Shown: in pieces, positions 10,569 to 47,523 of the stretch | How the letters are laid out: every line of letters begins with the position of its first letter | How positions within the stretch are numbered: the stretch's first letter is position 1 | NCBI GenBank assembly: GCA_015228975.1 | Contig: JADGCN010000001.1 | Span: 10,315 to 74,314, forward strand | DNA length: 64,000 bases | Source of the DNA: Magnetococcales bacterium | GTDB lineage: Bacteria; Pseudomonadota; Magnetococcia; Magnetococcales; UBA8363 | Reading direction: 5' to 3' | Program-made: the position numbers and the translations under genes | The notes under the pieces: model-generated | Databases searched by the model: none | What the model was told of the DNA's origin: nothing | What the model saw: only the letters and a program-made list of their open reading frames with translations

Positions 10569-10599
10569 GGGGCCTTTGGCAACCGATGGGAGGTGTGTG

Positions 10600-12021
10600 A
10601 TGTGTGCAGCCAAACATGTGGTGGTTATCGGTGCGGGTCCGGGTGGGTATGCCGCGGCTTTCCTGGCGGCGGACCACGGGTTTCAGACCACGCTCGTGGA
10701 CAAACAGGCGCAGCCGGGGGGGGTGTGCCTGCATTGGGGGTGCATTCCCAGCAAAGCCTTGCTGCATGCCGCCAAAATCATCAACGAGGCCAAAGAGGCG
10801 GAAAATATCGGCATTCGCTTTCAAAAACCCGAGATCGATCTCGCGGCGTTGCGGGCGTGGAAAAACAAGGTGGTGGAGCGCTTGACATCGGGCCTGGGAC
10901 AACAATGTCTCAAGCGCAAGGTGACCTTCATTCAGGGAACGGCAACCTTTCTGGCTTCGGACAGGATCGCGGTGCGGCAATCCAATGGCGAAACGCGGGA
11001 ATTGACTTACGACTCTTGCATCCTGGCCACCGGTTCCGTTTCGCGGTCGTTGCCGGAGTTTCCCTGGGACGCTCCGTGGGTGATGGATTCCACCCGCGCC
11101 CTGGAACTGGAGTCCATCCCCGAACGGATGCTGGTGATTGGTGGCGGGGTCATCGGCTTGGAATTGGGATCGGTTTATGCCACCCTGGGCAGTCGCGTCA
11201 GCATCATGGAGATGACACCGGGTCTTTTGCCGGGGGCGGATCGCGATTTGGTGCGTCTGTTGGCCAAACGTGTCGCGGGCTGGGCGGACAAGGTGATGCT
11301 GGAAACCCGGGTCGAGGCGGTGGAATCCCTGGGTACGGCGGTCCGGGTCACGTTTTGCGACAAGGCGGGGAACAAACATGCGCAAGAATTTGATCGGGTG
11401 CTGGTGAGTGTGGGGCGTCTGCCCAATGCCACCGGCTTGGGGTTGGAGTATACCCGGGTGAAATTGGATCGGGGGTTCGTCAAGGTTGACAAGGGGATGC
11501 GCACGGATGATCCCCATATTTCCTGTATTGGCGATGTGGTGGGTGGTCCGATGTTGGCGCATAAGGCCTCCCACGAAGCCCGGGTGGCGGTTGAGGTTTT
11601 GGCTGGCAAAAAAAGCGCGTTCGATCCCCGGGGGATTCCGGCAGTGGCGTTTACCGATCCCGAAATGGCGTGGGTGGGAGTGACCGAAACCGAGGCGCAA
11701 AAACAGGGCATGGAGGTGAAAACGGTCCGATTCCCATGGGCGGCTTCCGGCAGGGCGCAAACCTTGAGCTTGGGGGATGGCGTGGATGGGGTGACCAAGT
11801 TGATCATCGATCCCGGGACCCAACGTGTCTTGGGTATTGGCATTGTGGGTCAGGGTGCGGGCGATTTGATCGCCGAAGGGACGTTGGCCTTGGAGATGGG
11901 GGCGACGGCCTATGATCTGGCAGCTACCATTCATCCCCATCCAACGGTTTCGGAAACCATCATGGAGGCGGCTGATGTATTTCTCGGCCATTGCACCCAC
12001 TATTTTGTTCCCAAGCGCTGA
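10600..12021 (+). CDS. lpdA: Dihydrolipoamide dehydrogenase E3
   Basis: GAGPGGY, GGVCLHWGCIPSK redox disulfide, GGGVIGLE, HPHPTVSE; ATG at 10600 follows GGAGG. Confidence 0.97.
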   Translation: MCAAKHVVVIGAGPGGYAAAFLAADHGFQTTLVDKQAQPGGVCLHWGCIPSKALLHAAKIINEAKEAENIGIRFQKPEIDLAALRAWKNKVVERLTSGLGQQCLKRKVTFIQGTATFLASDRIAVRQSNGETRELTYDSCILATGSVSRSLPEFPWDAPWVMDSTRALELESIPERMLVIGGGVIGLELGSVYATLGSRVSIMEMTPGLLPGADRDLVRLLAKRVAGWADKVMLETRVEAVESLGTAVRVTFCDKAGNKHAQEFDRVLVSVGRLPNATGLGLEYTRVKLDRGFVKVDKGMRTDDPHISCIGDVVGGPMLAHKASHEARVAVEVLAGKKSAFDPRGIPAVAFTDPEMAWVGVTETEAQKQGMEVKTVRFPWAASGRAQTLSLGDGVDGVTKLIIDPGTQRVLGIGIVGQGAGDLIAEGTLALEMGATAYDLAATIHPHPTVSETIMEAADVFLGHCTHYFVPKR

Positions 12022-12297
12022 CCATTCCTGATGTTGTCTTAAAGAAGTTTTGGCGTTTTTGTTTTCTTTCCCTGATCGGGATTTAAGAATCGTTAAGGCT
12101 AAAAAAGCATGGCCAACGTTGGTAAACGGGTGGTATAGTCCGCAACAACGTTTGTAGCCGGCTTTTGACGTGGGGGAAGTTAACGATTGCAGGGATCCTG
12201 CTTGAAATGTTGGCTGGAGGGTTGGCTCAGGATCGAAAACCTGAACTAAAAAAATTGATCTTAAAGAGAGTGGGCGCAGCCCAAGAAAAGGGGCACC

Positions 12298-14652
12298 ATG
12301 ACACATCACAACCAAGATTCGGGTATCGTCGTTCATCCACACTATTTCATCGATCAGGTTGTCAACGGCTATTGCCGGGATCCGTTTGCATTCTTGGGTA
12401 TGCATACCCTTGAGGATGGAACCCTGGTGGTGCGTACCTTTCTCCCGGGTGCCCTGTACGTGGAGTTGGTCGATCGGGATACGGGCAAGAACATGGGCAG
12501 GATGGAGCCGATTCACGATTGGGGGTTGTATGGCATCCATCTGCGGCATCAAACCGAGCGGTTCAACCATCGTTTCACCGTTGATTTCGGAGCCGGTCCC
12601 GTACTTCTCGAAGATCCCTATCGGTTGCCACCCCAGTTGGGGGAAATGGATGTCTATTTGTTCTCCGAAGGGCGCCATTGGCGTCTTTATGAGCACATGG
12701 GCGCCCACCTGAAGAACGTCGATGGGGTGGAGGGAACCTTCTTCGCGGTATGGGCCCCGAATGCCCAGCGTGTCAGTGTCATCGGTAACTTCAACAATTG
12801 GGACGGACGCCGCCATCCCATGCGCTTGCGGCAGGAGTGCGGTGTGTGGGAATTGTTCATCCCTCACATTCGTTCCGGCGACCTGTACAAGTTTGAGGTC
12901 AAGGGGCCGCACGGTGACTTGCAGCCCGACAAGGCCGATCCCTTCGCCTTTGCCGGGGAATTGCCACCGGGCAACGCCTCCATCGTTCAGGCGCCCAGCA
13001 TCTACGAATGGGGCGACGGCGCCTGGATGGAAGCGCGAAAGAACCATAACTATTACAACAATCCCATGAGTATCTACGAACTCCATCTGGGGTCGTGGCG
13101 CCGCAAGCCGGAAGAGGGTAACCGCAGCCTTTCCTATCGTGAAATCGCGGATGAGCTGGTCCCCTATATCCAGGATCTCGGTTTCACCCATGTGGAATTT
13201 TTACCATTGTCGGAGTTCCCGTTCGAGGGTTCCTGGGGCTATCAACCAACGGGTCTGTACGCCCCCACCTGCCGCTACGGTCAGCCCGATGATTTGCGCT
13301 ACCTGGTGGATCGCCTGCATCAGGCGGGCATTGGCGTCATCATGGATTGGGTTGTTGGCCATTTCCCCACCGATGGCCATGGTTTGGGACGATTTGATGG
13401 TACGGCCCTCTACGAACACGAAGATCCCCGTCGCGGATTCCATCCCGATTGGAATACCCTGGTGTACAACTTTGGCCGCAAAGAGGTCAGTAACTTCTTG
13501 ATAGCCAATGCCCTGTACTGGATCGAACAGTTCCATCTCGATGCCCTGCGGGTCGATGCCGTGGCCTCCATGCTTTACCACGACTATGCGCGGCAAAATG
13601 GCGAATGGATTCCCAACCAATATGGCGGCAAGGAAAATTTGGAGGCGATTGATTTCATTCGCACCCTCAATACCAAGGTTTACGAAGAGGGTCAGGGGGC
13701 GATCACCATCGCCGAAGAGTCCACGGCCTGGCCCCAGGTGTCGCGACCGATCGATTCGGGGGGGTTGGGGTTCGGATTCAAATGGAACATGGGGTGGATG
13801 AACGATACCCTGGAATACATGCACAAGGAGCCGATTCACCGTTCGCACCACCACAACCATTTAACGTTCGGCATGCTGTATTGCTTCCACGAAAATTTCA
13901 TATTGCCCCTGTCCCATGATGAAGTGGTCCATGGCAAAGGGTCGCTGTTGGATCAAATGACCGGGGATGCATGGCAAAAATTTGCCAATTTGCGCTGTTA
14001 CTACACCTTCATGTTCGCCTATCCGGGCAAGAAACTGTTGTTCATGGGGGATGAATTCGCCCAGGGACAGCAATGGAACCATTTGGTGAGTCTGGATTGG
14101 CATCTCCTGGAAAGGGTACCGTTCCATCAGGGCGTGTTCCGTGTGATCCAGGATCTCAATCGCCTGTACCGCGGGTTGTTGTCCATGCATGACCTGGATC
14201 ATGAACCGGCTGGTTTCGAGTGGATCGAATGCAATGATCACCATCAAAGCATTCTGGCCTGGATCCGACGCGGACGCACGTCAGGGGATATTGTGATCGT
14301 CTGCAATTTCACCCCGGTGGTCCGGGGGAATTTCCACATCGGTGTCGCCAAGCCAGGGGTCTACACCGAAATCTTTAACAGCGATGCGGAAAAATATTCG
14401 GGATCCAATGTGGGTAACGGCGGTCAGGTGCAGACCGTGGAAGTCCCGGCCCATGGGCGGCAGCACTCGTTGGCGTTGACGCTGCCACCGCTGGCGGGAT
14501 TGATCTTGATCCATCAGCGCACGGGTGAGGATGATCGGGATTATGCGGACGGTTCTTCCGGGCAAGGTGTCCAGGACAGTGTTTCCCAATCCCATGCCCG
14601 GTTTCAGCACGGTGCCGGGAAATCTGAACAAGGGTACCCACCGGGACGGTGA
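12298..14652 (+). CDS. glgB: 1,4-alpha-glucan branching enzyme (GH13)
   Basis: FAVWAPNA, IYELHLGSW, SWGYQ, RVDAVASM, AEEST and LSHDEVVHGK motifs. Confidence 0.97.
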   Translation: MTHHNQDSGIVVHPHYFIDQVVNGYCRDPFAFLGMHTLEDGTLVVRTFLPGALYVELVDRDTGKNMGRMEPIHDWGLYGIHLRHQTERFNHRFTVDFGAGPVLLEDPYRLPPQLGEMDVYLFSEGRHWRLYEHMGAHLKNVDGVEGTFFAVWAPNAQRVSVIGNFNNWDGRRHPMRLRQECGVWELFIPHIRSGDLYKFEVKGPHGDLQPDKADPFAFAGELPPGNASIVQAPSIYEWGDGAWMEARKNHNYYNNPMSIYELHLGSWRRKPEEGNRSLSYREIADELVPYIQDLGFTHVEFLPLSEFPFEGSWGYQPTGLYAPTCRYGQPDDLRYLVDRLHQAGIGVIMDWVVGHFPTDGHGLGRFDGTALYEHEDPRRGFHPDWNTLVYNFGRKEVSNFLIANALYWIEQFHLDALRVDAVASMLYHDYARQNGEWIPNQYGGKENLEAIDFIRTLNTKVYEEGQGAITIAEESTAWPQVSRPIDSGGLGFGFKWNMGWMNDTLEYMHKEPIHRSHHHNHLTFGMLYCFHENFILPLSHDEVVHGKGSLLDQMTGDAWQKFANLRCYYTFMFAYPGKKLLFMGDEFAQGQQWNHLVSLDWHLLERVPFHQGVFRVIQDLNRLYRGLLSMHDLDHEPAGFEWIECNDHHQSILAWIRRGRTSGDIVIVCNFTPVVRGNFHIGVAKPGVYTEIFNSDAEKYSGSNVGNGGQVQTVEVPAHGRQHSLALTLPPLAGLILIHQRTGEDDRDYADGSSGQGVQDSVSQSHARFQHGAGKSEQGYPPGR

Positions 14653-18183: not shown

Positions 18184-19305
18184 TTGAAAACCCATGCGAG
18201 AAAAGCAATAAGCCTCTTCTCGGGTGCCGGTGGAATGGACGTTGGCATTCGAGAAGCAAGTTTTAGCATTCTGGCCGAAATCGAATTTGATGAACACTGT
18301 TGCGCAACTCTCAAGGCAAATGCAGCACGGCAACATACTGGAACCCGTGTATTTCATGAAGATATCCGAAATGTCGTGCCTTCGGAACTACTTAAAGATC
18401 TTGAACTTGAAAAGGGTGAACTTGACCTCCTTTTCGGTGGGCCGCCATGCCAATCATTTTCCCTTGCGGGAAAACAGCTTGGCTTGATGGACGAGCGCGG
18501 ACCCTTGCTTTTTGAGATCATCCGATTTGCCAAGATGATAAGGCCAAAAGTGATTTTGCTTGAGCAGGTAAAGGGCTTACTTTCATCAAAGGGAAGTGAG
18601 GCACGACGGGGTGAGGTGTTCGAGAAATTTCTGAGAGAACTTGAGGAAATCAGCTATACTCCAAAGTGGCGTGTTATACTAGCGGCAGACTATGGTGTCC
18701 CACAACTCAGAGAACGACTTTTTGTCATTGCGACTCGTGAACGGAATGGTTTTCTGTTTCCAGATAGAACTCACGCGCCAGTTGAGGAATGTAAAGGACT
18801 TTTCCCCTATGAACCTTATGTTGGGATAGGCGAGGTTATCTCGGGATTAGGAAATCCTGACCCAAAAATCCGTGGGAAAACAGTCTATGAAAGAACTGAT
18901 AGCCATGTGGATGTAACTCCAGAAAGAGACCGGGAACGGATCGCAAAAGTACCAGAAGGATCATATCTTGCAGCACAAACGCATCTTGGTGAAAAACTTA
19001 TCCGTGGTTTATCCTCAAAGGACACTACAAAATACTTGCGACTTCATCGAGAACGACCATCAAATACACTTCGGTGTGGTGAAATTTTCTATCACCCTAC
19101 AGAAGATAGATATTTGACGCCACGTGAATATATGAGAATTCATGGATACCCAGACGATTACATTCTCAAAGGCCCCATAAGGTCAAGAACTGGTTCAGTT
19201 CGTAATCTTGATCAGCACCGCCAAGTCGCAAATTCTGTCCCACCGCTTCTGGCAAAAATTATTGGGCTGCAGATAAAAAGGTTTTTGGATGAGCAAAATA
19301 TTTGA
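18184..19305 (+). CDS. DNA (cytosine-5) methyltransferase of a type II R-M system
   Basis: Motif I FSGAGG, motif IV GGPPCQSFS, motif VI as EQV (normally ENV), motif VIII YGVPQLRER, motifs IX/X (RYLTPREYMRIHGYPD, QVANSVPP); TTG start; AT-richer than flanking DNA. Confidence 0.95.
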   Translation: MKTHARKAISLFSGAGGMDVGIREASFSILAEIEFDEHCCATLKANAARQHTGTRVFHEDIRNVVPSELLKDLELEKGELDLLFGGPPCQSFSLAGKQLGLMDERGPLLFEIIRFAKMIRPKVILLEQVKGLLSSKGSEARRGEVFEKFLRELEEISYTPKWRVILAADYGVPQLRERLFVIATRERNGFLFPDRTHAPVEECKGLFPYEPYVGIGEVISGLGNPDPKIRGKTVYERTDSHVDVTPERDRERIAKVPEGSYLAAQTHLGEKLIRGLSSKDTTKYLRLHRERPSNTLRCGEIFYHPTEDRYLTPREYMRIHGYPDDYILKGPIRSRTGSVRNLDQHRQVANSVPPLLAKIIGLQIKRFLDEQNI

Positions 19306-20398
19306 ACTCTATGGATTCCGGCTGGATTGTTGGAATGATGAGGCTGCCAAAAATAGAGCGAAAGCGTGGTGCCCTTTTATGGATTCGGAATGTGATGGTG
19401 GTGGCAACCGCTATCTATCTGCAATTGATTTGAAGAGCAGCAACCACCTTCGCCGATATTTTCCGGGCAAAGACATCGTTCAATCCGGTGTTTGCTCTCT
19501 TCGTCTTCGAGAGGGAGAGCAGCCTTGGATTGTATGTCCTCGTCGCCTCCTGTCACTGAAAACGCAAATGCCATCGGATTACCAATCCCATGTAAAAGCC
19601 GAGTTGGCTCAGCGCTCTGAACTTGAACCGAGGAAAGCATACCGCGCTTGGTCCGAAGTCAAAATGAAAATCGAGACTACGAATAATGACGATGAAACAA
19701 AGTCTTTTGATTATACTTTCGATTACATCATAGCGGGGACAGTGCGAAAAAAAGTCTCGGAAATTGTGTCGTTAGTCGGAAATAGCGAGCGAGTTACACT
19801 AAGAATTGCAGAAGAAAATGGCTACACAATAGCTATGAGGGATGGAGAACGTTGGATTGACGATTTTCCTGCGGAGCCGATCATAATTGTCGAGATCATG
19901 ACCTCCAGCACGTCTGGAGGGGATAAGAAAAAGAGAACACAAATTGCAATGGCGTGCGAAGATGCAATCATTGACCCGGCAAATCATAATGGTCCAAGTA
20001 TTAACTATCGGCAAGTGTGGGCCAGAATGGTAAGTCAGCTTATCGTAAAATCGCAAGTAGGACTGGCATGGGGCGGCAGGACATTCTGGCTTCTTCAAGA
20101 TGTGCTTGCGAATTACATCTCAAGCACAACTGCACTCGACCTATCCCGATATATTGCTAAATATCCGAATGAAGTTAATATACTTGCCTTTGGTTATGAC
20201 GATGTGGATGGAGCGGATGCGAAACCGATTATGGAACTCGAAGATTCAACATTTTATTCCGGGCCAATCACCGAAAACGCTGGAGATTCTCAAGCGAAGG
20301 GCTTCGTTGAGATAGTCAAGATCGGCGCTCCTCCCAACAAGGAACACCTCTGGCGTTCCTTATTCAAGAAGGCCCCATCTGGAATTCTACGGTTGTAA
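19289..20398 (+). CDS. Putative NotI-family restriction endonuclease
   Basis: Overlaps the methyltransferase by 17 bp. N-terminal four-Cys pattern (CPFMDSEC...GVCS...IVCPRR) resembles the NotI metal-binding domain; FDYII...IVEIM is a candidate PD-(D/E)xK-like core. Confidence 0.75.
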   Translation: MSKIFELYGFRLDCWNDEAAKNRAKAWCPFMDSECDGGGNRYLSAIDLKSSNHLRRYFPGKDIVQSGVCSLRLREGEQPWIVCPRRLLSLKTQMPSDYQSHVKAELAQRSELEPRKAYRAWSEVKMKIETTNNDDETKSFDYTFDYIIAGTVRKKVSEIVSLVGNSERVTLRIAEENGYTIAMRDGERWIDDFPAEPIIIVEIMTSSTSGGDKKKRTQIAMACEDAIIDPANHNGPSINYRQVWARMVSQLIVKSQVGLAWGGRTFWLLQDVLANYISSTTALDLSRYIAKYPNEVNILAFGYDDVDGADAKPIMELEDSTFYSGPITENAGDSQAKGFVEIVKIGAPPNKEHLWRSLFKKAPSGILRL

Positions 20399-28314: not shown

Positions 28315-29166
28315 ATGGAAGACATTGAGACCCATCTCCCCACCATGATCCAGGCAGCTCGCGCTGCCGGTGCTTTGATCAAGGGACAATTTCGCCTCGG
28401 TCAAGACAGATCGAAATGCGGAAAAATACTGGAAAAAGGCCCTGATCATCCCGTTACCCAAGCCGATCTGGAAGCCAATGAGGCCATTCGCAACCTGCTC
28501 ATGGCATCCACGCCAGACTATGGCTGGCTCTCTGAAGAGACCGCTGACAGCCAGGATCGTCTCCACAAGCAACGCGTTTGGATCGTTGACCCGCTGGACG
28601 GAACCAAAGAGTTTATCCAGGGATTTCCAGAGTTTGCCGTCTCCATTGCGTTGGTCGAAGAGGGCCGACCGGTGTGCGCCTGCCTGTATAATCCGGCAAA
28701 AGAGGAACTGTTTACCGCCATAGCCGGCAAAGGCAGCCGCAAAAATGATCGACCGATACAAACATCCCGTACCACGCAGTTGAAACACGCCGTCTGTCTG
28801 ACCAGTCGCTCTGAAACCAGTCGTGGTGAATGGGAGCCTTTTAAAGATGAGTTTACCTTGAAAACTACAGGTTCCATCGCCTACAAACTGGCCCTTCTGG
28901 CCAGTGGTGCCGCCGATTTCACCTTCACCTTGACCCCAAAAAATGAATGGGACGTTGCCGCTGGAATCCTGTTGGTTCTTGAAGCACACGGGCAGGTCAC
29001 CGATAAAATGGGAATGCGCATTTCTTTCAACCAACCGTCCCCCAATTTGTCCGCAATTCTCTCTTCCAACGGTCAACTTCACCCGGCACTGCTCAGACGC
29101 TTGGCTTCGGTCCCTTTGAATCTGGATCGTCGCGCAACGCAACCATCTACCATTGCAACAACCTGA
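28315..29166 (+). CDS. cysQ: Inositol monophosphatase family / 3'(2'),5'-bisphosphate nucleotidase CysQ
   Basis: PVTQAD, LSEE, WIVDPLDGTKEF and EWDVAAG motifs. Confidence 0.85.
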   Translation: MEDIETHLPTMIQAARAAGALIKGQFRLGQDRSKCGKILEKGPDHPVTQADLEANEAIRNLLMASTPDYGWLSEETADSQDRLHKQRVWIVDPLDGTKEFIQGFPEFAVSIALVEEGRPVCACLYNPAKEELFTAIAGKGSRKNDRPIQTSRTTQLKHAVCLTSRSETSRGEWEPFKDEFTLKTTGSIAYKLALLASGAADFTFTLTPKNEWDVAAGILLVLEAHGQVTDKMGMRISFNQPSPNLSAILSSNGQLHPALLRRLASVPLNLDRRATQPSTIATT

Positions 29167-29181
29167 CACAATGGAAATCCC

Positions 29182-30183
29182 ATGAAACCCTACAATGTTT
29201 ATGGAATCGGGCATGCCCTGGTCGATGTCGAATACCATGTAGATGAAGCTTTCCTGCTTCAAGCCGGCTTGCCCAAGGGATCCATGACCCTGGTCGATGC
29301 CCAACGCCAGAATCACCTCGTCACCACGTTGACAAGCCCGGTCGTCCACCGTTCATCAGGTGGTTCCGCCTCCAATACCATGGTCGGACTGGCGCAATTG
29401 GGGGGGCAGTGTTTTCACTCCTGCAAGATCGCCGATGATGAGCTGGGCCATTTCTTTACCGCCGACATGCGCGCCAACGGCGTGGATAATGCGGCTCACC
29501 CTTGCCATACCCGGGAGGGGGAAACGGGACGCTGCCTGGTCATGATCACCCCTGATGCCGAACGGACCATGGTGACCCACCTGGGCGTTTCAGAAACTTT
29601 TTCCCGGGAAAATCTTTCTGAACATCATCTGTCATGGGCGGAATACCTGTACATCGAGGGTTATCTCGTCTCGTCCCCCGTGACACTCGAAGCCGCGACA
29701 ACGGCAAAAAAAATGGCGCAATCCCACGGTGTCAAAACAGCCTTGACCTTTTCCGATGTGTCCATGATTCAATATTTCCGTGAAGGCATCGACAAACTGG
29801 TTTCCGGGGGGCTGGACCTCCTGTTCTGCAACGAAAACGAGGCCCTCCGTTTCACCAATACCGACCAATTGGACGTTGCCATTTCCCGACTCAAGGAAAT
29901 CGCCAAGTCTTTCTGTCTCACCCTGGGTCCCCGTGGAGCCGTACTGTTTGCCAATGGAACCCGCGTGGATCTCCCCGGAATGACGGTTAATGCCGTTGAT
30001 ACCAATGGTGCCGGCGATCTTTTTGCAAGCGGTTTCCTCTACGGCATTACCCATGGGTATTCCCTGGCTCAAGCTGGTGGACTTGCCATCCAGCTTTCGG
30101 CCCAGTTGGTCACCCAGTACGGGGCCAGGCTGCAACTTGGCCAGGCAAACCAGATCAAAATGAACTTTGGAGGGCATCCATGA
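29182..30183 (+). CDS. PfkB-family carbohydrate kinase (adenosine kinase-like)
   Basis: KGSMTLVD, GGSASNT, ERTM and DTNGAGDLF motifs. Confidence 0.9.
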   Translation: MKPYNVYGIGHALVDVEYHVDEAFLLQAGLPKGSMTLVDAQRQNHLVTTLTSPVVHRSSGGSASNTMVGLAQLGGQCFHSCKIADDELGHFFTADMRANGVDNAAHPCHTREGETGRCLVMITPDAERTMVTHLGVSETFSRENLSEHHLSWAEYLYIEGYLVSSPVTLEAATTAKKMAQSHGVKTALTFSDVSMIQYFREGIDKLVSGGLDLLFCNENEALRFTNTDQLDVAISRLKEIAKSFCLTLGPRGAVLFANGTRVDLPGMTVNAVDTNGAGDLFASGFLYGITHGYSLAQAGGLAIQLSAQLVTQYGARLQLGQANQIKMNFGGHP

Positions 30184-30560
30184 GTACCAACAATCCGGAT
30201 AACCAGCAGAGTGGGAGCGAAAGACGCCATTTTTCCCGGGTCAATTTCCACCACGAAATCACCCTGACCAATGAAACCAATCACTCTTTCCGAGGGGCAT
30301 TCAGTGATATCAGTCTCCGCGGCATGCTATTCCATGGCGACCCCCTCCCTGCCATGAACAATGTCGTCCGCGGTATTCTAAGCCTCGGCGATGTGCAACT
30401 CACCATTCAGGGCAAAGTCGTCCACTCGTCAGCGGGCCGGGGTGCGGCCATTCGCTTTGAAGACATGGACCTGGAAAGCTTTTCCCACCTGCGCCGGTTG
30501 GTTTCGCTGAACATGGGCGATTCTGAAACCATTGACCAGGAATTTTTCAGCGCGTTATGA
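30180..30560 (+). CDS. Stand-alone PilZ domain protein
   Basis: RxxxR (RRHFSR) and D-x-S-x-x-G (DISLRG) c-di-GMP-binding motifs; C-terminal SFSHLRRLVSLN; ATGA overlaps on both sides. Confidence 0.9.
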   Translation: MSTNNPDNQQSGSERRHFSRVNFHHEITLTNETNHSFRGAFSDISLRGMLFHGDPLPAMNNVVRGILSLGDVQLTIQGKVVHSSAGRGAAIRFEDMDLESFSHLRRLVSLNMGDSETIDQEFFSAL

Positions 30561-31270
30561 CCCGCGATCTGAGCTTTTTGGCCGGCATTTATCCCATACT
30601 GGATGCGGCGTGGTTGCAACAACACCTGCGGGAAGAGGACTGGCCCGTCGCCGAGCGCATTCGTCTGGTACGCGACATGGAGAATGCCGGTATCCGGTTG
30701 CTCCAGTTGCGGTGCAAAAACTCCCTGGACCAAGCCACAGCCTTTTTTGAACGGTGGTTGAAAGTATTGCGCTCTGAAATGGAACAGGTCCGAGTCATTC
30801 TCAACGATCACGTCTCCCTGGCGCTCAAGCTGCAAGCGGATGGCGTCCACGTTGGCCAGGACGACACGCCAATTACCGAATGCCGCGCCCTTTTGGGACC
30901 CGATCTCCTGATCGGATTGTCGACCCATAACCGGGCTGAGGTTGAAGATTCCCTGGCGACTTCCGCCGATTATATCGGGTTCGGCCCCCTGTTCCAAACC
31001 GGTTCCAAACCCGATGCCCAAGCCCCATCGGGTCTGGATGGATTGAAAATCGCCTGCCGATTCGGCCAAAAACCGATTGTCGCCATCGGGGGCATCCAGC
31101 CGGAACACCTGAGCCATATCGCCTTTTGTGGTGCCCACGCCGCCGCCATGATCAGCGGCCTGTGGGGCACCAACGGTCGCTTTCTCATCGGCCAGTGCGT
31201 TCGCGAATTCGCCCGGGGTTTGGAAAACCGTCACGGCAACTTTAATTACTCTGCGGAACACTCCGAATAG
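30557..31270 (+). CDS. thiE: Thiamine-phosphate synthase
   Basis: QLRCK, ILND, GVHVGQDD, IGLSTH, YIGFGPLFQTGSK and VAIGGI motifs. Confidence 0.92.
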   Translation: MTRDLSFLAGIYPILDAAWLQQHLREEDWPVAERIRLVRDMENAGIRLLQLRCKNSLDQATAFFERWLKVLRSEMEQVRVILNDHVSLALKLQADGVHVGQDDTPITECRALLGPDLLIGLSTHNRAEVEDSLATSADYIGFGPLFQTGSKPDAQAPSGLDGLKIACRFGQKPIVAIGGIQPEHLSHIAFCGAHAAAMISGLWGTNGRFLIGQCVREFARGLENRHGNFNYSAEHSE

Positions 31271-32112
31271 TGAACGAACATCCCAAAAACCGCCTTGATC
31301 TCATGGAGGACTTGGCCCGGAAAGCATCGGATTCCACCCGACCAAACGATGCACGACTGTTGCTGCGGCAACTCTTCCGGGACGAATTTGAAACCAAAAA
31401 GAGTCGCATACCACCCATCAAGGGAAAAGAGACCATCGCCATCCTTTCAATCCTGGCCCTTTTTCTGTTCGGCCTGATGGTCAGCAAAAAATTTAACCGG
31501 ATGGTGACCATGGAAGAATCGGTGCTGTCGACCAACGGACTGGTTATCAATGCCCTGCAACGTCGGACCACACTGTTCTCCACCCTGGTCAACCTGACCT
31601 TGAATCAAGCGGCATTGGAGCAGGAGGTGTTTCGCCACGTTGCGGACGTGCGCAAGGCCCTGATGGGAGGAAGTCCGTCCGATTCCGCCAAGCCAGAGCT
31701 TCCTGCCGATGGCAGCCAAGCAGCCGATTCGGCAACAACCCGGCAGCCACCCCGGGAATTCTCGCCAACCACGGCCAGGATCGACCCCGCCATGGCCAAG
31801 CTGCTCGCTGTGGTGGAACAGTATCCCAATATCAAATCATCTACGACCTACCAGCAGCTCATGGACAAGTTGGTGGAGATTGAAGATCGCATCATCGCCA
31901 GGCGTGCCGAATATAATAATGCTGTACGCGATTATAACACGTACATCACAACCTTTCCCCAATACATCTTGGCAGATATCGTTGGGTTCAGGATTTACAA
32001 ATATTCCAGTATTAATAAAACCATCGAGCGCGATGTGTTCCATCTGGATAATTTAAACCTGCCTCAATTCCAACGCCTGCTGCCCCTGGATCCGGAAAAA
32101 GAGCATCCCTGA
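31270..32112 (+). CDS. LemA-family membrane protein, MamQ-like
   Basis: Single TM, then LQRR..LFSTLVNLTLNQAALEQEVF, VEQYPNIKS, EIEDRI..RAEYNNAVRDYN..FP and C-terminal FQRLLPL. GTG start shares a base with the thiE TAG stop. Confidence 0.85.
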   Translation: MNEHPKNRLDLMEDLARKASDSTRPNDARLLLRQLFRDEFETKKSRIPPIKGKETIAILSILALFLFGLMVSKKFNRMVTMEESVLSTNGLVINALQRRTTLFSTLVNLTLNQAALEQEVFRHVADVRKALMGGSPSDSAKPELPADGSQAADSATTRQPPREFSPTTARIDPAMAKLLAVVEQYPNIKSSTTYQQLMDKLVEIEDRIIARRAEYNNAVRDYNTYITTFPQYILADIVGFRIYKYSSINKTIERDVFHLDNLNLPQFQRLLPLDPEKEHP

Positions 32113-41474: not shown

Positions 41475-41490
41475 CGGCATATATTTTGCT
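41475..41490 (+). promoter_or_regulatory. Candidate sigma54 promoter of the type I secretion operon
   Basis: CGGCAT-ATATT-TTGCT (GG-N10-GC) about 85 bp upstream of the TolC start. Confidence 0.5.
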
Positions 41491-41572
41491 TGCTTGCATA
41501 AAACCTCAAGGACTGGCCATCGTGCATCCGAAAAGGGGTTATTGTCAGCGAAGTCAGCGAGGAGTTGGGAAT

Positions 41573-42991
41573 ATGGCGTTGCGGCTTAAAGCGTTATCCT
41601 GGTGGCGTATCGGCATTCTCGTGTTACCTGGTGTTGCCTTTCCTTTGGAAGTCGGTGCCGAAACCTTGCGGGAGGCCGTGGAGGCGCTATTGCAGAGGCA
41701 TGACCGCATCCTGGCGGCCAAGTCGGATCTCGAAGCGGTCGGCGAGAGGAAAGACCAAGTGTTTCGTTCGACGTTCCTGCCCAACCTGACCGTATCCACC
41801 CACGTGGGCGAGGATCGGAACAGCAACAGAACCACACAGCCCGATACCAACATGATTTCCCGGGAAATGGATGTGGCCGTCAAGCAATTGCTCTTTGACT
41901 TTGGCAAGGGAATGGCCGATGTGGAGGTTCAGGACAATCAACAGCGGCAGATGCGCGCCGCGTTGGACAATGTCAGTCAAACCTTGATCCTGGATGCGGT
42001 GAGTTCTTACCTGAACCTGGATCGCGCAGCCAAAGTTCTGGAATTCGCCAAAAAGTCGGTTTCCAACATTCGCCATCAGGGGGAGGTGGAGAGTGCCCGC
42101 GTGACCCTGGGTAAGGGATATTCCACCGATGTGTTGCAGGCGAAGGCCCAATTGGCTGGGGCGGAGGCGCGGCAAGTGCAATCCCGCGGCATGTTGCTCA
42201 GGGCGGAGACGCATTCCCGAACCGTGTTTTTGCGGGAACCTGTCGAGGTGACCCGTCTGGTACCCCCGGACCCCACCCTGGTGGTGTTACCGAAGAGCAT
42301 GGACGATGCATTGGCTGCCGCAGTGGCCAATAATCCCCAGTTGCGCCAGTTGGCGGCTGCGGTTGATGGCTTGGAGGCGGCGCGCCGCAGTGCCAAGATC
42401 AGTGGCTTTCTCCCAGCGGTTAATGGCGTTTGGGAATACAAGGTGAAAAATAATGTGGCGGCGATAGAAGGATTTGAACGCGAAAATTTTGTCAAAGCGG
42501 AGATGAGCTTTCCGTTTAACCTGGGGCTGGCCAGTGTTAGCGCGGTGCGGGCGGCGGACCGGGATTTGGATGCCGCCAAGAATCGTTATAACGATATGTT
42601 ACTCAATGTCCATGAAGCGGTACGTACTTCATGGCACAATTTGGAAACTTCACGGGAAAATGCCGAACTGTTGACAACCCAGGCGACCTTGGCGGAAAAA
42701 TTTGTTGAATTGGCCAAGGAAGAACGGGCACTGGATAAACGGACGCTCCTGGACGTGTTGAATGGTGAGACGGCCTTGATCAATGCCCAGAGCGATGCCC
42801 TGTCGGCGGCGACCGAGGTGCAGATCGCCTCCTACTCCATGTTGCAGGCGATGGGGAGTTTAAACGCCGAGATATTGTCTCCGGGCACCCCTGGCAAGGC
42901 GAAATCATTCCAGGCCCTGAATGATTCCCCCAAAAAGGAGGATATGCCGGTGCCCGCGAAAGAGCAGAAAAACGTACGTAAGAAAAAGTAG
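41573..42991 (+). CDS. TolC-family outer-membrane channel of a type I secretion system
   Basis: Signal peptide; ETLREAV, QLLFDFG, DVLQAKAQL and RTLLDVLNGE repeats typical of outer-membrane efflux proteins; GAGGAG ribosome-binding site. Confidence 0.92.
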   Translation: MALRLKALSWWRIGILVLPGVAFPLEVGAETLREAVEALLQRHDRILAAKSDLEAVGERKDQVFRSTFLPNLTVSTHVGEDRNSNRTTQPDTNMISREMDVAVKQLLFDFGKGMADVEVQDNQQRQMRAALDNVSQTLILDAVSSYLNLDRAAKVLEFAKKSVSNIRHQGEVESARVTLGKGYSTDVLQAKAQLAGAEARQVQSRGMLLRAETHSRTVFLREPVEVTRLVPPDPTLVVLPKSMDDALAAAVANNPQLRQLAAAVDGLEAARRSAKISGFLPAVNGVWEYKVKNNVAAIEGFERENFVKAEMSFPFNLGLASVSAVRAADRDLDAAKNRYNDMLLNVHEAVRTSWHNLETSRENAELLTTQATLAEKFVELAKEERALDKRTLLDVLNGETALINAQSDALSAATEVQIASYSMLQAMGSLNAEILSPGTPGKAKSFQALNDSPKKEDMPVPAKEQKNVRKKK

Positions 42992-43071
42992 GATATCTGT
43001 GGTAGTATCAAGAGTTCCAGGAATGGATCGGGACCGGGGTGTTCAGACATATTTCGGGTGAGGAGTACATC

Positions 43072-46000
43072 ATGAAAAGGTCATTGCACGAATTTATGCC
43101 CGGTCAACTCCGCCCCTGGGCCCCCGAAGTGATGCATCCCACCTCGGATAAACCGCTGGTCATGGGTCACGACGATTTTTTGCTGACGGCGCAATTCACC
43201 CGCCAGGGGAGTGATCTGCTCCTGGAGGGTGGGGTCGATTATCCGGGGCATTCGGTTTTGATCCCGGGTTATTTTTCATTGGCTACCCCCCCCGATCTGG
43301 TGACCGGCTACGATGCCCGGGTGACATCCGACTTGGCATTGCGATTGGCGGGTCCCGCGACGCCAGCGGTCTATGCGGAAAATGCCCCGGCGACACCGAC
43401 GGCAACCGTTGCTTCGGGGGGGGATGGCGTTGGTCGCATCGAATCGACGGTTGCAGGGGCCACCGTGACCCGCGCCGGTGTCAAAATGGCTGCGGAAAAG
43501 GGAATGGTCATCCAGGTAGGGGATGTCATCGAAACCCCCAAGGGGGGTGGGGTCGGCTTGGTGTATGCCGATAATACGACGATCTCCCTGGCCAATTCCG
43601 GACGCTTGGTCGTCGAAGAGATGAAATTCGACCCCGCCAAGAATGAGGGCAAGTCGACCACCAATGTCGTCCAGGGTGAATTTTCCTTTGTCAGCGGCCA
43701 TGTCGCCAAGACCGGAACGGACAAAATGGTGTTCAAAACCCCGGTTGCAGTCATTGGCGTGCGGGGTACGACGGTTGCGGGCAAGGCATCGGCGGAAGGG
43801 TCGGAAAACAGTTTCACCCTGTTGCCGGACGCCGATGGCGGCGTGGGCAAGATAGCGGTTACCAACCAGTCGGGAACCATTGTTCTGTCGCAACCCAACC
43901 AGACAACCACGGTGACCAGTTTTTCCGCCAAACCCACCCCCCCGGTGATTTTATCGCACCAGGAGATTCAGACCCGTTATGGTAGTGCAACGCGCATTTT
44001 GCCCCCACCCCCGGCGACACCTCCCCAGGGTACCAAGAGTGGTTCGACCCCTGGCAAGGAAGGTGACGCAAAGGGTGACGCAAAGGGTGACGCCAAAGGT
44101 GAAGCCAAAGGTGAAGCGAAGGGTGATGGGAAAGATGCGAAGGGTGACGGGAAAGAGGCGAAGGGTGACGGGAAAGATGCGAAGGGTGACGGGAAAGATG
44201 TGAAAGGTGATGGAAAAGATGGGAAGGGTGACGGAAAAGAGGCGCAGGGTGACGGGAAGGATGTGAAAGGTGATGGGAAAGATGGGAAGGGTGACGGGAA
44301 AGCGGGTGGCGACAAGGCTCTCCAAGGGGATGCGGCCCCATTGAAGGAGGGGAAAGCGGCTGAAGAGGGCAAACCTGTGGCAACAGGGGATGCCGACAAG
44401 GGTGCGGCGGCTCAGGGGCCTGGAGGTGTGCAGACCGCGGATGCGGCAAAGAATGCGGGACCGTCTACGGGGCCGGACGCGGGACCAAACGCTCAGGGGG
44501 TGGTTGCCAGCGGACCGCAGGGACAAAGTGGATCCGGTGTGCAACAACCTGTTGCGCAGACGGGTGTCGTGCAGGGCAACACCCAACCCGTGGTGGCCAA
44601 CACTCCAGTTCCCCAGTCTTTCCAGTCGGTTGTTCCCACAGTGACCAATCTTTTCGCACCATCCACCCTCCTTGGTACGACTGCCAACGCGACTGTCAAC
44701 AACCAGATCGGGAACAATCTGGTTGGGAACAATCTGGTTGGGAACAATACGGTTGTGAACAATGCGGTCGGGAACAATCCCGTTCAGCAAAATCAGGCGA
44801 TGGCTGCTGGTAATGTGACCTCACAAACCAATGCTGGGATGGGTGTTGCTTCCGTCAGCAATCCGCTCCCTGTAACAACGGTTAAAACAGTGAGCCCGGT
44901 TGTGACAACGACACAAACTCCGGTGCAACAGGTTCAAACCCAGCCGCAACAGCAGCAAACGAACAATCAACAGGTCAGCCAACCGACAACGTCAAATCCT
45001 GGTGTGACCCAAAATCCGGGGACAAGCGGGTCAAATCAGACGCAACAACCCGGTACGGGTACAACGACTCAGACACAGGATACGGGCACGACAAATCCGC
45101 CGGGCACGACGACTCAGACACCGGGTACGACAACCCCGCCGGGTACGACGACTCAGACACCGGGTACGACGACTCAAACACCGGGTACGACGACCCCGAC
45201 ACCGGACACGGGTACGACGCAGCCCCAGCCTCAGCAGCTTGCGGCTCCGAGCCTGACGTTACGTGATACGGTGGGTACGACGAGTAAGCCTTTCTACATT
45301 GACATCGCATCATCTCTTCAGAGTAGTACTGGAAATTTGTCTGTAGCAGTGGCGGGCTTGCCGACGAACAGCACGATTTCTGCGGGATCCATGGATGGTT
45401 CCGGTAATTGGGTCATCCCTTCGAACCAGCTTTCCGGTTTGTCCATGACGCTTTCCCAGGGGGCACCCGATACGATGCAGCTTGGTGTCACGGCCACCGC
45501 CAGTGATGGTACCAGCAGTGCTTCGAAGTCGGGGACGCTCAATATCTGGTTGGGGGGTAATGACTCCTTGTTCTATTCCAGCAATACCCAGATTGTGAAC
45601 CAAAATGCTCCGCCCACGAATGTGACGCGGATTGCTGGAGGAAATGTCAAAATTGATATGGCCTCGAATTCATTGACCTATCTGGAGAGTTGGGCATCGG
45701 ATACCGTTGCGACGATTCCGTTCAGTTCTATCACGAAGTATCCCAATGGTGGTCTTGAGATTGCTTTTTCCAATAATTTTTCCGCCCATGGCATCATGTC
45801 GTCGAATGCCTCTGTGGGGCTGTTTTCCATGAGTAATTCCGCCCAAGGGTCGACGCTTCCGAATGCCATGTTCTCAGTCGTGGTTCCCGATGCTCCCGGT
45901 CACAGTAACTCGGGTGTCGCGGGCAATTACCATTTCGCTTATTTAAAGACGGGGTCCGGCACGACTCCGGCAACGGGCTATGGTACCTTTACCCTGAATG

Positions 46001-47523
46001 GTTCAGGCCAGGGGAGCGTTGTCACCCAGGCCAGTTCCGATGGTCTTGGTGGTGCTTTGAAAAGTTCGACCTTCACCTATTCCGTGCAAAGCGATGGCAC
46101 CCTGGTGATTACCGAACCGGATGGTACGGTGGGGCATGGCAAGGTGTCTCCAGATGGTCAGACGATTGTGTTTGAGGAAACGGGTGCCGCGTCCTCGACT
46201 TTTGGCATTGGTTTGAAGGATGGAACCACCGTGCCCAACACAGCCCAGCTCAAGGGGACTTATGTAGCCAGCTCGTACGATGCATCCCATGTTACCATAC
46301 CCAACTCGACACAATCTTTCGATACTATTTCGTCCGAGCTTACCAAGGTGAAATATGACGGCGTTGGGGGTGCCAGCAGTTATGAAGTTTTCATGGGTCA
46401 CTATCTGGCCGTACCAGAAACCTTCAGCTATGCTTCCAATGCCAATGGGTGGATTGACATGGCCAATACGACAAACACTGCCAAATCGGCAGTGGGGTTT
46501 CTGTCCAGCGATGGCAACATTTTAATGACGGTGGATACGGCCACAACGCAAGGTACCAATAGTGATAATCACGTTGGTTTGACCGTTGCCATTAAGCAGA
46601 ACGTTGTGGATGGGATAAACGAAGGTTCCGCCAGCTCGACGCCCATTCTGGTTTCTGATCTGCTGGCGTTGGAGGTGAAAAGCCATGCCCCGGGGGCGAT
46701 GGGGATTGCCGTGAGCGGTTTCAGTGCCATTCAATCGGGTACTGTCAGCGCCATAACCGATCCGACGGTCATAACGGCCAGTGTCGGCAAATGGCAGTAC
46801 AGCCAGGATTTGGGTTCGACCTGGAGCGATATTGGTTCGCCTACGGCCAACTCATCTTTAATTCTGTCAGCGGATAATTCGACGGAGATCCGTTTTGTTC
46901 CGGATAATTCCTTTATCGGGCAAGCTGTCTTGAAATATCAGGCCTGGGATGGTACGGGTGGATTCACCAATGGTCAGACCGGGGTCAATTTGAGCAACAG
47001 TCCCGCCAGTTTTTCCAATGTTGTCGGGAATGCGGTTTTCGGAGTTCATCCCGTACCCAAAGATTTTGTCCAGACAGCCGTTTCCGGTTCGACAACGGTA
47101 CTTAATGGTACTCCGGGCAATGATCTCATGCTTGGGACAACGGGTGCCGACTCTTTTAAGGGGTTGGACGGTAGCGATACGTTTGTTGGGGGTGGCGGTG
47201 CCAACACCTTCTACTTCACCGGGGTGAGCGATTCTACTCCGGCTGCTTCCGACCGCATCATCGACTTCAATGTCAGCACCGACAAAATTGATATCTCTCT
47301 GGGGACCTCCTATACGGCATACAGTTACATCAGCGCGACCTCCTTTCATGCAACGGGTCAGACGGAAATCAGGTTTGACCAACCATCGGGATTGTTGCAG
47401 GTGGACTCGAACGGTGATGGTGTTTCCGATATGGCGATCAAGTTGGATCATGTGACTTCGACGAACCTGGATTCCACCTTGGATGCCGGTCAACATCCGA
47501 CCTGTCTCAGTGTCCATGTGTAA
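43072..47523 (+). CDS. Large type I secretion cargo: FecR-like domain, low-complexity linker, Ig/cadherin-like domains, RTX/serralysin-type C-terminus
   Basis: FecR motif (TPVAVIGVRGTT); GDAK/GDGKD and PGTTT repeats; WQYSQD.GSTW...IRFVP...YQAWDGT module; GND..LGTTGAD..GGGGANTF...DRIIDF C-terminus; no Sec signal; lies between tolC and the ABC/HlyD genes. Confidence 0.88.
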   Translation: MKRSLHEFMPGQLRPWAPEVMHPTSDKPLVMGHDDFLLTAQFTRQGSDLLLEGGVDYPGHSVLIPGYFSLATPPDLVTGYDARVTSDLALRLAGPATPAVYAENAPATPTATVASGGDGVGRIESTVAGATVTRAGVKMAAEKGMVIQVGDVIETPKGGGVGLVYADNTTISLANSGRLVVEEMKFDPAKNEGKSTTNVVQGEFSFVSGHVAKTGTDKMVFKTPVAVIGVRGTTVAGKASAEGSENSFTLLPDADGGVGKIAVTNQSGTIVLSQPNQTTTVTSFSAKPTPPVILSHQEIQTRYGSATRILPPPPATPPQGTKSGSTPGKEGDAKGDAKGDAKGEAKGEAKGDGKDAKGDGKEAKGDGKDAKGDGKDVKGDGKDGKGDGKEAQGDGKDVKGDGKDGKGDGKAGGDKALQGDAAPLKEGKAAEEGKPVATGDADKGAAAQGPGGVQTADAAKNAGPSTGPDAGPNAQGVVASGPQGQSGSGVQQPVAQTGVVQGNTQPVVANTPVPQSFQSVVPTVTNLFAPSTLLGTTANATVNNQIGNNLVGNNLVGNNTVVNNAVGNNPVQQNQAMAAGNVTSQTNAGMGVASVSNPLPVTTVKTVSPVVTTTQTPVQQVQTQPQQQQTNNQQVSQPTTSNPGVTQNPGTSGSNQTQQPGTGTTTQTQDTGTTNPPGTTTQTPGTTTPPGTTTQTPGTTTQTPGTTTPTPDTGTTQPQPQQLAAPSLTLRDTVGTTSKPFYIDIASSLQSSTGNLSVAVAGLPTNSTISAGSMDGSGNWVIPSNQLSGLSMTLSQGAPDTMQLGVTATASDGTSSASKSGTLNIWLGGNDSLFYSSNTQIVNQNAPPTNVTRIAGGNVKIDMASNSLTYLESWASDTVATIPFSSITKYPNGGLEIAFSNNFSAHGIMSSNASVGLFSMSNSAQGSTLPNAMFSVVVPDAPGHSNSGVAGNYHFAYLKTGSGTTPATGYGTFTLNGSGQGSVVTQASSDGLGGALKSSTFTYSVQSDGTLVITEPDGTVGHGKVSPDGQTIVFEETGAASSTFGIGLKDGTTVPNTAQLKGTYVASSYDASHVTIPNSTQSFDTISSELTKVKYDGVGGASSYEVFMGHYLAVPETFSYASNANGWIDMANTTNTAKSAVGFLSSDGNILMTVDTATTQGTNSDNHVGLTVAIKQNVVDGINEGSASSTPILVSDLLALEVKSHAPGAMGIAVSGFSAIQSGTVSAITDPTVITASVGKWQYSQDLGSTWSDIGSPTANSSLILSADNSTEIRFVPDNSFIGQAVLKYQAWDGTGGFTNGQTGVNLSNSPASFSNVVGNAVFGVHPVPKDFVQTAVSGSTTVLNGTPGNDLMLGTTGADSFKGLDGSDTFVGGGGANTFYFTGVSDSTPAASDRIIDFNVSTDKIDISLGTSYTAYSYISATSFHATGQTEIRFDQPSGLLQVDSNGDGVSDMAIKLDHVTSTNLDSTLDAGQHPTCLSVHV
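44062..44301 (+). repeat. Coding tandem repeats (12-bp and 21-bp units) encoding GDAK/GEAK and GDGK(D/E)xK
   Basis: GGTGACGCAAAG-type units followed by GGTGACGGGAAAGATGxGAAG-type units. Confidence 0.9.
45100..45198 (+). repeat. Coding tandem repeat PGTTT(QT/P)
   Basis: Five CCGGGYACGAC-initiated units of 18-21 bp. Confidence 0.85.

Follow-up and report, generated by a model that had tools for sequence, protein, structure and literature searches.

How does a gene of a kind that serves to build magnetosome membranes come to stand at the end of a housekeeping gene run, with no other magnetosome gene beside it? The question is raised by a 64,000-nucleotide stretch of a Magnetococcales genome (contig JADGCN010000001.1 of assembly GCA_015228975.1), referred to as the window below, in which a 280-aa open reading frame (ORF) at 31270-32112 on the forward strand directly follows the thiamine-phosphate synthase gene thiE. 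We find that the predicted product is a MamQ-type LemA protein, here called MamQ2. The gene is likely a genus-specific duplicate of mamQ that left the magnetosome cluster, was inserted between thiE and a CPA2 antiporter gene, and has been kept there by purifying selection. MamQ belongs to the small set of proteins required for magnetosome membrane formation, and leaving the cluster for a housekeeping operon is an unusual fate for an organelle-building gene.

Family assignment and architecture of the thiE-linked protein

The ORF is intact in the window translation. Its GTG start uses the final G of the thiE stop codon TAG (...gaataGTGaac...), resulting in a 1 nt overlap, as a sequence-only reading of this DNA had described, and the start position lines up with the starts of the orthologues and of cluster-encoded MamQ. 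The protein matches the Pfam LemA profile (PF04011) with 105.8 bits (cut-off 26.2; residues 93-250 on profile positions 6-139 of 149) and the NCBIfam MamQ equivalog NF040966 with 195.9 bits (E 6e-58, model positions 1-218 of 221), the latter score lying under the curated cut-off of 250 bits. To calibrate this model, 51 LemA-family proteins from genomes of the order Magnetococcales were scored, yielding 79-86 bits for generic LemA (n = 4), 194-211 bits for the thiE-linked copies (n = 6), and 190-296 bits for MamQ encoded in mamAB operons or islets (n = 41). Because only 9 of these 41 copies reach 250 bits, and the cluster MamQ of the same genome does not (246.9 bits), the cut-off is not discriminating for MamQ in this order. 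For the same reason, most MamQ of the order, including the 32 bona fide cluster or islet copies that fall short, are labelled only 'LemA family protein' by the sources, which is a warning for the use of such annotations. The MamQ2 orthologues carry this label too, and score about 45 bits under the cluster MamQ of their own genus. The sources do name MamQ in Magnetococcus massalia MO-1, Magnetococcus sp. PR-3, Magnetofaba australis, and strain FCR-1.

The assembly (3.75 Mb, 234 contigs, 75.9% complete) contains three LemA-family genes: a cluster mamQ on contig C66, the window ORF on contig C111, and a generic lemA on contig C205. The 48-kb contig C66 carries a mamAB operon encoding MamH, E, K, M, O, P, A, a 1020-aa tetratricopeptide repeat (TPR) protein, MamQ, MamB, and MamS, and the genome is thus that of a magnetotactic bacterium with its own cluster mamQ (C66:44805-45764), whose product is 48% identical to MamQ2. 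The 1020-aa protein (C66:41730-44792), located between mamA and mamQ, resembles MamA only in the TPR region at its C-terminal end (65.5 bits on the MamA model, residues 803-1010), and relatives of it occupy the same place in other genomes of the genus. The generic LemA on C205 (169.8 bits on Pfam LemA) is 29% identical to MamQ2 and adjoins an M48 peptidase gene; at C205:10776-13350, the lemA gene has the gene for this 647-aa M48-family peptidase directly 3' of it on the same strand, and the two may possibly form a functional pair. Around MamQ2 itself, a Pfam scan that covered another 40 window ORFs gave no Mam family, and a tblastn search with 11 Mam proteins of the genome's cluster matched only ORF 31270-32112 on C111, in agreement with the earlier observation that mamAB genes are absent nearby. 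Among the Mam proteins tested in this way, MamQ is the only one with a close relative outside the cluster.

Alignments with cluster MamQ of Magnetococcales and Alphaproteobacteria indicate that the full-length MamQ architecture is present in MamQ2. The protein begins with a predicted cytoplasmic extension (aa 1-55, 31270-31434, forward strand) that is MamQ-specific and has no counterpart in generic LemA; its ...R24...RLLLRQLFRDEFETKKSRIPPIKGK segment aligns to ...RMKRLLRQLYKDEF...LPPIK of cluster MamQ. It is followed by a single hydrophobic stretch, the putative membrane helix IAILSILALFLFGLMV (about aa 56-71, 31435-31482, forward strand), with the juxtamembrane residues K73 and M78 just behind it. 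An AlphaFold model of moderate confidence (mean predicted local distance difference test (pLDDT) score 67.3), taken for secondary-structure layout only, places helices at 7-18 and 24-41 in the extension and includes the membrane helix in a continuous helix at 52-133 (pLDDT 82-93 for residues 51-90). The LemA domain is interrupted by a variable low-complexity insert (aa 135-171, 31672-31782, forward strand) that is predicted to be disordered (pLDDT < 50), differs in length and sequence among MamQ proteins, and is mostly gapped and much shorter in generic LemA. A figure legend on MamQ mentions an 'MTB-specific stretch' (PMC4902198). Behind the insert, the model has three further helices and a short tail past F.RLLPL. 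The only solved relative by sequence is the T. maritima LemA structure 2ETD (E 3.2e-23), which is also the sole Foldseek match at E <= 0.001, superposing loosely (TM 0.28/0.51, root-mean-square deviation 18.7).

Three motifs had been taken as marks of MamQ: QRRTTLFSTLVNLTLNQAALEQEVF, LLAVVEQYP, and FQRLLPL. All three are present in the translation, but VVE.YP is not MamQ-specific, as the generic LemA of this genome has LFAVVENYP. The extension, the NLTLNQAALEQEVF block, and the F.RLLP end were indeed not found in the aligned generic LemA.

Distribution, phylogeny and origin

We surveyed 56 genomes of the order, among them the window genome (G000, of genus g1), and inspected the neighbourhoods of all MamQ-type loci. 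Matches were found in 52 of the 56 genomes, adding up to 64 loci, of which 55 adjoin genes for MamA, MamB, MamS, or MamP, three belong to mamE-K-(M)-Q islets in family f7, and six follow thiE. The thiE-linked loci are confined to genus g1, where they occur in six of eight genomes (G000, G049, G050, G051, G052, and G054), and the five orthologues share the synteny of the window ORF at 54-92% identity. The gene order at these loci is PfkB kinase-PilZ-thiE-MamQ2, with cysQ upstream and the CPA2 gene downstream wherever the retrieved stretch extends that far. How far the MamQ2 start lies from the thiE stop differs between genomes: G000 and G049 share the 1 nt overlap, G050 and G054 have a 3 nt spacer, and the distance grows to about 78 nt or more in G052 and to about 480 nt in G051, where the 483 nt spacer contains no mamA or mamB remnants (tblastn best E 0.04). 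Families f7, f8, and f16 have the run cysQ-PfkB-PilZ-thiE as well, but followed by neither CPA2 nor MamQ2, so that the run predates the insertion of MamQ2. The thiE linkage that the sequence-only reading proposed to follow across Magnetococcales occurs in 6 of 56 genomes, all from one genus.

All six carriers of MamQ2 also have the genus-type magnetosome cluster. The two remaining genomes of the genus differ in what they reveal: in G055 (74% complete), thiE itself was unmatched with the query used, so that its lack of a thiE-linked copy carries no weight, and G053 (99% complete) has cysQ-PfkB-PilZ-thiE-CPA2 with a thiE-CPA2 spacer of 9 nt and no MamQ2 in between. In a tree of the four concatenated upstream proteins, G053 is nested within the genus as sister to the MamQ2-bearing G051 (100/100), for which reason its lack of MamQ2 is best read as a clean loss. 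The sole magnetosome cluster of G053 (C39, 27.6 kb) encodes Mam proteins only 37-61% identical to those of G000, and its MamQ groups with family f15 (support 99). The contig has no housekeeping gene to anchor it, so that horizontal replacement and mis-binning are indistinguishable.

Three family f7 copies (L021, L022, and L043) were considered as independent solitary paralogs and rejected, as their neighbours encode MamE, MamK, and, in one case, MamM, making them islet copies. In the three genomes concerned (G011:C59, G010:C43, and G012:C318), a second mamE-mamK-(mamM)-mamQ islet exists beside the main mamAB operon. The islet MamQ proteins score 241-255 bits on NF040966 and form a clade of their own (96-100% support) next to the f7 cluster MamQ.

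Among 135 database proteins gathered in two protein searches, six clusters share the signature of the window protein (P0001-P0005 and P0007) and one is intermediate (P0006). The closest homologues with a source name all come from a 'Magnetococcales bacterium'. P0006, a 318-aa protein from a 7.8 kb contig, is 57% identical to the window ORF and branches at the base of the thiE-linked clade.

Two quick maximum-likelihood trees, rooted on four generic LemA, group the thiE-linked proteins in one clade (support 100 in the first; in the second, 95 without P0006 and 100 with it) as sister to the cluster MamQ of genus g1, with joint support of 95 and 98. Generic LemA are set apart from all MamQ-type rows by the longest branch in every tree that includes them. 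For a more careful analysis, we used an unrooted MamQ-only tree of 45 rows, obtained by dropping the 4 LemA and 14 near-duplicate or long rows from a set of 63. This tree separates the seven thiE-type and five g1 cluster MamQ from the 33 others (94/91), and the thiE-type proteins form a clade (100/100) on a long stem branch (0.6-0.9). The protein thus falls inside the MamQ radiation and not with generic LemA, and the earlier proposal of a relocated or paralogous mamQ holds on both profile scores and trees.

Exactly beside the cluster MamQ of its own genus is where a copy made in the genus stem would attach, and it would be a coincidence for an ancient lineage; we therefore favour a duplication in the stem of genus g1, and a recent duplication is strongly favoured over an ancient lineage. 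That the copy moved out of the cluster is indicated by its one-genus range together with its sister position in the unrooted tree and the thiE-CPA2 junction that exists without the gene in a nested member of the genus.

The run into which the gene was inserted starts in the window with an inositol-monophosphatase/CysQ-family phosphatase gene (28315-29166, forward strand; Pfam Inositol_P 187.7 bits), whose product scores 140.3 bits on the NCBIfam CysQ and 157.8 bits on the HisN model, both under the cut-off. It is followed after a gap of 15 nt by a gene for a PfkB-family, adenosine-kinase-like kinase (29182-30183, forward strand; Pfam PfkB 172 bits). The sequence-only reading had named this run cysQ-adenosine kinase-PilZ-thiE; order and families are as described, but no NCBIfam equivalog scores over its cut-off for the kinase, leaving the identity as adenosine kinase plausible. 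Next comes a gene for a 126-aa single-domain PilZ protein (30180-30560, forward strand; Pfam PilZ 49.1 bits), overlapping the kinase gene by 4 nt, whose translation has RRHFSR and DISLRG, which we take to match the RxxxR and D/NxSxxG motifs of cyclic di-GMP binding. thiE (30557-31270, forward strand; TIGR00693 152.2 bits, cut-off 145.1) overlaps the PilZ gene by another 4 nt and MamQ2 by the shared base. Downstream of MamQ2 lies the CPA2 cation/proton antiporter gene (32157/32280-33518, forward strand; Pfam Na_H_Exchanger 160.5 bits), whose true start is probably the ATG at 32280, as the orthologue alignments start at aa 38-42. The base composition of the MamQ2 gene resembles that of its neighbours.

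Residue signature, selection and possible role

Substitution rates (Nei-Gojobori) show MamQ2 to be under purifying selection, with a non-synonymous rate somewhat above that of the cluster copy. For the pair G000/G049, the ratio of non-synonymous to synonymous rates (dN/dS) of MamQ2 is 0.21 (dS 0.23, dN 0.048), compared to 0.10 (dS 0.17, dN 0.017) for the cluster MamQ. The corresponding values for G050/G054 are 0.14 (dS 0.89, dN 0.125) and 0.12 (dS 0.22, dN 0.026). Within this second pair, dS thus differs between cluster mamQ (0.22) and the thiE-linked copy (0.89); the magnetosome cluster may have been exchanged between the two species after the housekeeping locus had diverged.

We next compared the thiE-linked copies at 60 positions that are at least 85% conserved among 59 other MamQ proteins. 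All six copies agree with the other MamQ in 45 of these columns, and all six depart from them in four, where Y73 has become K/N, F78 has become M, W231 has become Q, and R242 has become I/T. In the 59 other MamQ, these residues are present in 58 (Y73), 59 (F78), 59 (W231), and 53 (R242) proteins. At position 246, the others have F (46) or Y (13) and the thiE-linked copies have A (4) or S (2), a change unique to them, as generic LemA has W or Y here. The intermediate protein P0006 has E73, F78, W231, I242, and S246; two of these positions are still as in other MamQ (F78 and W231) and two are already replaced (I242 and S246), which fits a stepwise change.

Background on function comes mainly from Magnetospirillum, where the text of PMC4902198 describes MamQ as needed for normal magnetosome membranes and located mainly in the cytoplasmic membrane, and proposes that it acts there as a hub organising magnetosome proteins before invagination. 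According to a 2026 preprint (bioRxiv 10.64898/2026.10.21.759321), MamQ of strain MSR-1 alone invaginates the inner membrane of E. coli, with the N-terminus cytoplasmic and the LemA domain periplasmic, and remodelling membranes and driving the formation of vesicles is a general activity of LemA proteins. MSR-1 MamQ is inactivated by E111A, E179A, Y181A, and Y241A/F242A (text of PMC4902198), and section 6 of the preprint likewise describes inactivating residue mutations (bioRxiv 10.64898/2026.10.21.759321). These residues were mapped from their spacing, aided by alignments with the protein of Magnetospirillum sp. WYHS-4 (P0130) and with T. maritima LemA; on this mapping, E117, E183, Y185, and Y245 of MamQ2 would correspond to MSR-1 E111, E179, Y181, and Y241 and be kept, and S246 would take the place of F242.

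From these observations, the following scenario can be drawn. mamQ would have been duplicated in the genus stem, and the copy would have relocated behind the conserved cysQ-like/PfkB/PilZ/thiE run, where it would be co-transcribed with housekeeping genes, translationally coupled to thiE in G000, and made independently of the mamAB promoter; expression with the run is suggested by the position of the gene and by four of the six genomes, in which thiE and MamQ2 overlap or lie 3 nt apart. Since every architectural element of MamQ is kept, MamQ2 would have the same topology, N-terminus inside in the cytoplasmic membrane and LemA domain periplasmic or lumenal, and would organise or bend the membrane. 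The conserved MamQ-specific cytoplasmic extension would mean that it still meets a magnetosome-specific partner, and the loss of the aromatics Y73, F78, W231, and F/Y246 and of R242 would reflect a changed contact on the lumenal or interface side. MamQ2 could accordingly be pictured as a sub-functionalised, constitutively expressed helper of magnetosome membrane formation with altered contacts, a role we prefer, tentatively, and rate a little short of an even chance. The extension, kept in all six copies, leans toward a continuing link to magnetosomes, as does the genus-type cluster of all six carriers next to the foreign-type cluster of the MamQ2-less G053, and the loss of otherwise invariant aromatics and an arginine leans toward a new role.

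Several points weigh against this picture of a relocated helper. Co-transcription is read from gene spacing, and the spacing is uneven, being much wider in G051 (about 480 nt) and G052 (about 78 nt or more) than in the other four carriers. Promoter and terminator scans stayed at the level of shuffled sequences (4 vs. 3.3 and 7 vs. 7.3, respectively). The helper role draws on conservation patterns and on one uncertain co-loss, that of MamQ2 and the genus-type cluster in G053, where the provenance of the f15-type cluster contig is uncheckable and which we do not use as a firm case. The structural model is of the moderate confidence given above. C111 and C66 are separate contigs of a fragmented, 75.9% complete assembly. 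Finally, MamQ2 is 47-49% identical to the cluster MamQ of its own genus, barely above its identity to those of other families (up to 51%), and its residues at positions 73 and 78, just past the membrane helix, are like those of generic LemA (K/R/T/V and L/I, respectively) and unlike those of cluster MamQ.

These last residues are also part of the case for a neofunctionalised duplicate, in which MamQ2 would have become a general inner-membrane remodelling or vesiculation factor, expressed with the housekeeping genes and the PilZ protein. It would explain why Y73, F78, W231, R242, and the aromatic 246 were lost though conserved in other MamQ, and is in line with the now generic-LemA-like juxtamembrane residues, the long stem branch (0.6-0.9), the housekeeping operon, to which the gene is tightly coupled in four of six genomes, and the general membrane-remodelling and vesicle-driving activity of LemA proteins described in the preprint text (bioRxiv 10.64898/2026.10.21.759321). 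However, the genome already has a generic LemA, encoded beside an M48 peptidase, and all six copies keep the MamQ-specific cytoplasmic extension. Furthermore, six of six carriers have the genus-type magnetosome cluster, and the sole nested member without MamQ2, G053, also has only a foreign-type cluster. We thus regard such a change of role as rather unlikely, albeit a serious competitor to the helper function.

Far less probable is an origin in which the thiE-linked form and all magnetosome MamQ would be sister lineages, the former a relic of the transition from generic LemA to cluster MamQ. If true, this would be a snapshot of the magnetosome cluster recruiting a housekeeping membrane-remodelling LemA, and the sequence-only reading had suggested that the locus may show how magnetosome genes were recruited. 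A careful LemA-rooted tree of 63 rows places the root within the thiE group, as the generic LemA branch (9.6 changes per column) joins there with weak supports (33/0, 58/82, 68/95, and 73/100). An approximately unbiased (AU) test does not reject this position: the best tree that keeps thiE-type and genus cluster MamQ together exceeds the free tree by 0.79 log-likelihood units (p-AU 0.533). The LemA-like positions 73 and 78 would also fit an ancient form. An outgroup branch of 4.5-9.6 is, however, expected to be attracted to the long MamQ2 stem. As the quick and careful trees disagree on the attachment of the outgroup and the AU test is indecisive, rooting with generic LemA was abandoned in favour of the MamQ-only tree and the distribution. 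There, the thiE-linked form attaches beside its own genus's cluster MamQ (94/91) and is restricted to one genus (6 of 56 genomes, and 6 plus 1 intermediate of 135 database proteins), which would require losses everywhere else. The aromatic residue at 246, common to generic LemA, T. maritima LemA, and cluster MamQ, is lost in MamQ2 and therefore points to a derived state, and G053 has an intact thiE-CPA2 junction that lacks the gene. The locus is thus a poor witness to the recruitment of magnetosome genes.

Less probable still is a neutral or decaying duplicate without a function of its own. Such decay could account for the higher dN of MamQ2 (0.048 vs. 0.017 for the cluster copy in G000/G049), the deficit of about 45 bits to the genus cluster copies on the MamQ model, and the loss in G053. 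It is at odds with frames that are intact in six species at 54-92% identity, dN/dS values of 0.14-0.21, and the retention of 45 of the 60 conserved MamQ columns by every copy. Nor are the replacements scattered, as each position has settled on the same or a similar residue throughout the clade.

That the ORF is an ordinary LemA-family gene unrelated to magnetosomes, as the source label of its orthologues and its Pfam LemA score of 105.8 bits might suggest, is ruled out by profile scores and trees and carries next to no weight: its score on the MamQ model is 195.9 bits vs. 79-86 bits for the generic LemA of the order, the generic LemA of the genome is a separate third gene (169.8 bits on Pfam LemA, 29% identical), and the longest branch divides generic LemA from all MamQ-type rows.

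Returning to MamQ2 as a relocated, genus-specific mamQ duplicate, its retention through the radiation of the genus with fixed aromatic and basic swaps makes it a natural comparison for separating membrane-bending surfaces from partner-contact surfaces. Complementation of a Magnetospirillum mamQ deletion, which had been proposed as a check, is unlikely to be informative because the cluster mamQ of Magnetococcus MC-1 already failed to complement the MSR-1 deletion (text of PMC10470508).

Wider window and comparison with known systems

Elsewhere in the window, three further observations concern genes away from the thiE run. At 41486-47523, a TolC-like outer-membrane efflux gene is followed by the gene for a 1494-aa protein that combines a FecR domain with a serralysin-type (RTX-like) C-terminal region and resembles a type I secretion substrate. 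A run of five ORFs on the reverse strand (9780-14631; 219, 923, 219, 128, and 116 aa) had no Pfam match at E <= 1e-5. At 18184-20398, a C-5 cytosine DNA methyltransferase gene overlaps a 369-aa ORF without a Pfam match, and the two may form a restriction-modification pair.

Compared to generic LemA, such as T. maritima TM0961 (2ETD) and P. aeruginosa LemA1 and LemA2 of the preprint text (bioRxiv 10.64898/2026.10.21.759321), MamQ2 has the helical LemA domain in common, with N76, R99, E117, E183, P186, F240, and other residues invariant in both, and the two share non-aromatic residues at 73 and 78. In contrast, generic LemA lacks the N-terminal extension of about 55 residues, the long insert, and the F.RLLP end of MamQ2.

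The likeness to cluster MamQ of Magnetococcales is more extensive, comprising the extension, the membrane helix, the insert, the NLTLNQAALEQEVFRHVADVR and TYQQLMDKLVEIEDRI blocks, and the F.RLLP end, at 42-51% identity and with E117, E183, Y185, and Y245 kept. Unlike cluster MamQ, MamQ2 follows thiE and is not encoded beside mamA or mamB, has Y73, F78, W231, R242, and the aromatic 246 replaced in all six copies, and in G000 has a short C-terminal tail.

MamQ-like genes outside the magnetosome island have been described in Alphaproteobacteria. The text of PMC2818848 lists a gene of the magnetotaxis islet of strain AMB-1 and the solitary MGR_0326 of MSR-1, which has no mam-like neighbour. Like MamQ2, these are LemA/MamQ-type genes away from the main cluster of a magnetotactic bacterium. 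They are alphaproteobacterial, 37.5% identical to AMB-1 MamQ, and about 190 aa long going by the coordinates printed there (PMC2818848), and may be generic LemA. MamQ2 differs from them in being of full-length MamQ type, sister to the cluster MamQ of its own genus, and part of a conserved housekeeping operon.

Duplication and scattering of mam genes is an already established theme. Within clusters or islets, mamQ-I and mamQ-II of Terasakiella SH-1 and the duplication of mamQ, mamR, and mamB in AMB-1 are reported in the text of PMC6819731, and Nitrospirota clusters contain mamQ and mamQ-2 (text of PMC9376291). Paralogs of mam genes are also scattered outside the clusters in some Alphaproteobacteria (text of PMC6819731). 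In the full text of the literature consulted, no thiE-linked or solitary diverged MamQ paralog is described in Magnetococcales, although supplementary tables might list such genes. The mamQ duplicates of SH-1, AMB-1, Nitrospirota, and the f7 islets all stay among mam genes, whereas MamQ2 stands alone in a non-magnetosome operon and has clade-specific replacements. MamQ2 thus stands for a subfamily of MamQ that is marked by its own residue signature and by its place among housekeeping genes, and it extends to Magnetococcales the scatter of mam paralogs that had so far been described, in the text of PMC6819731, for Alphaproteobacteria.

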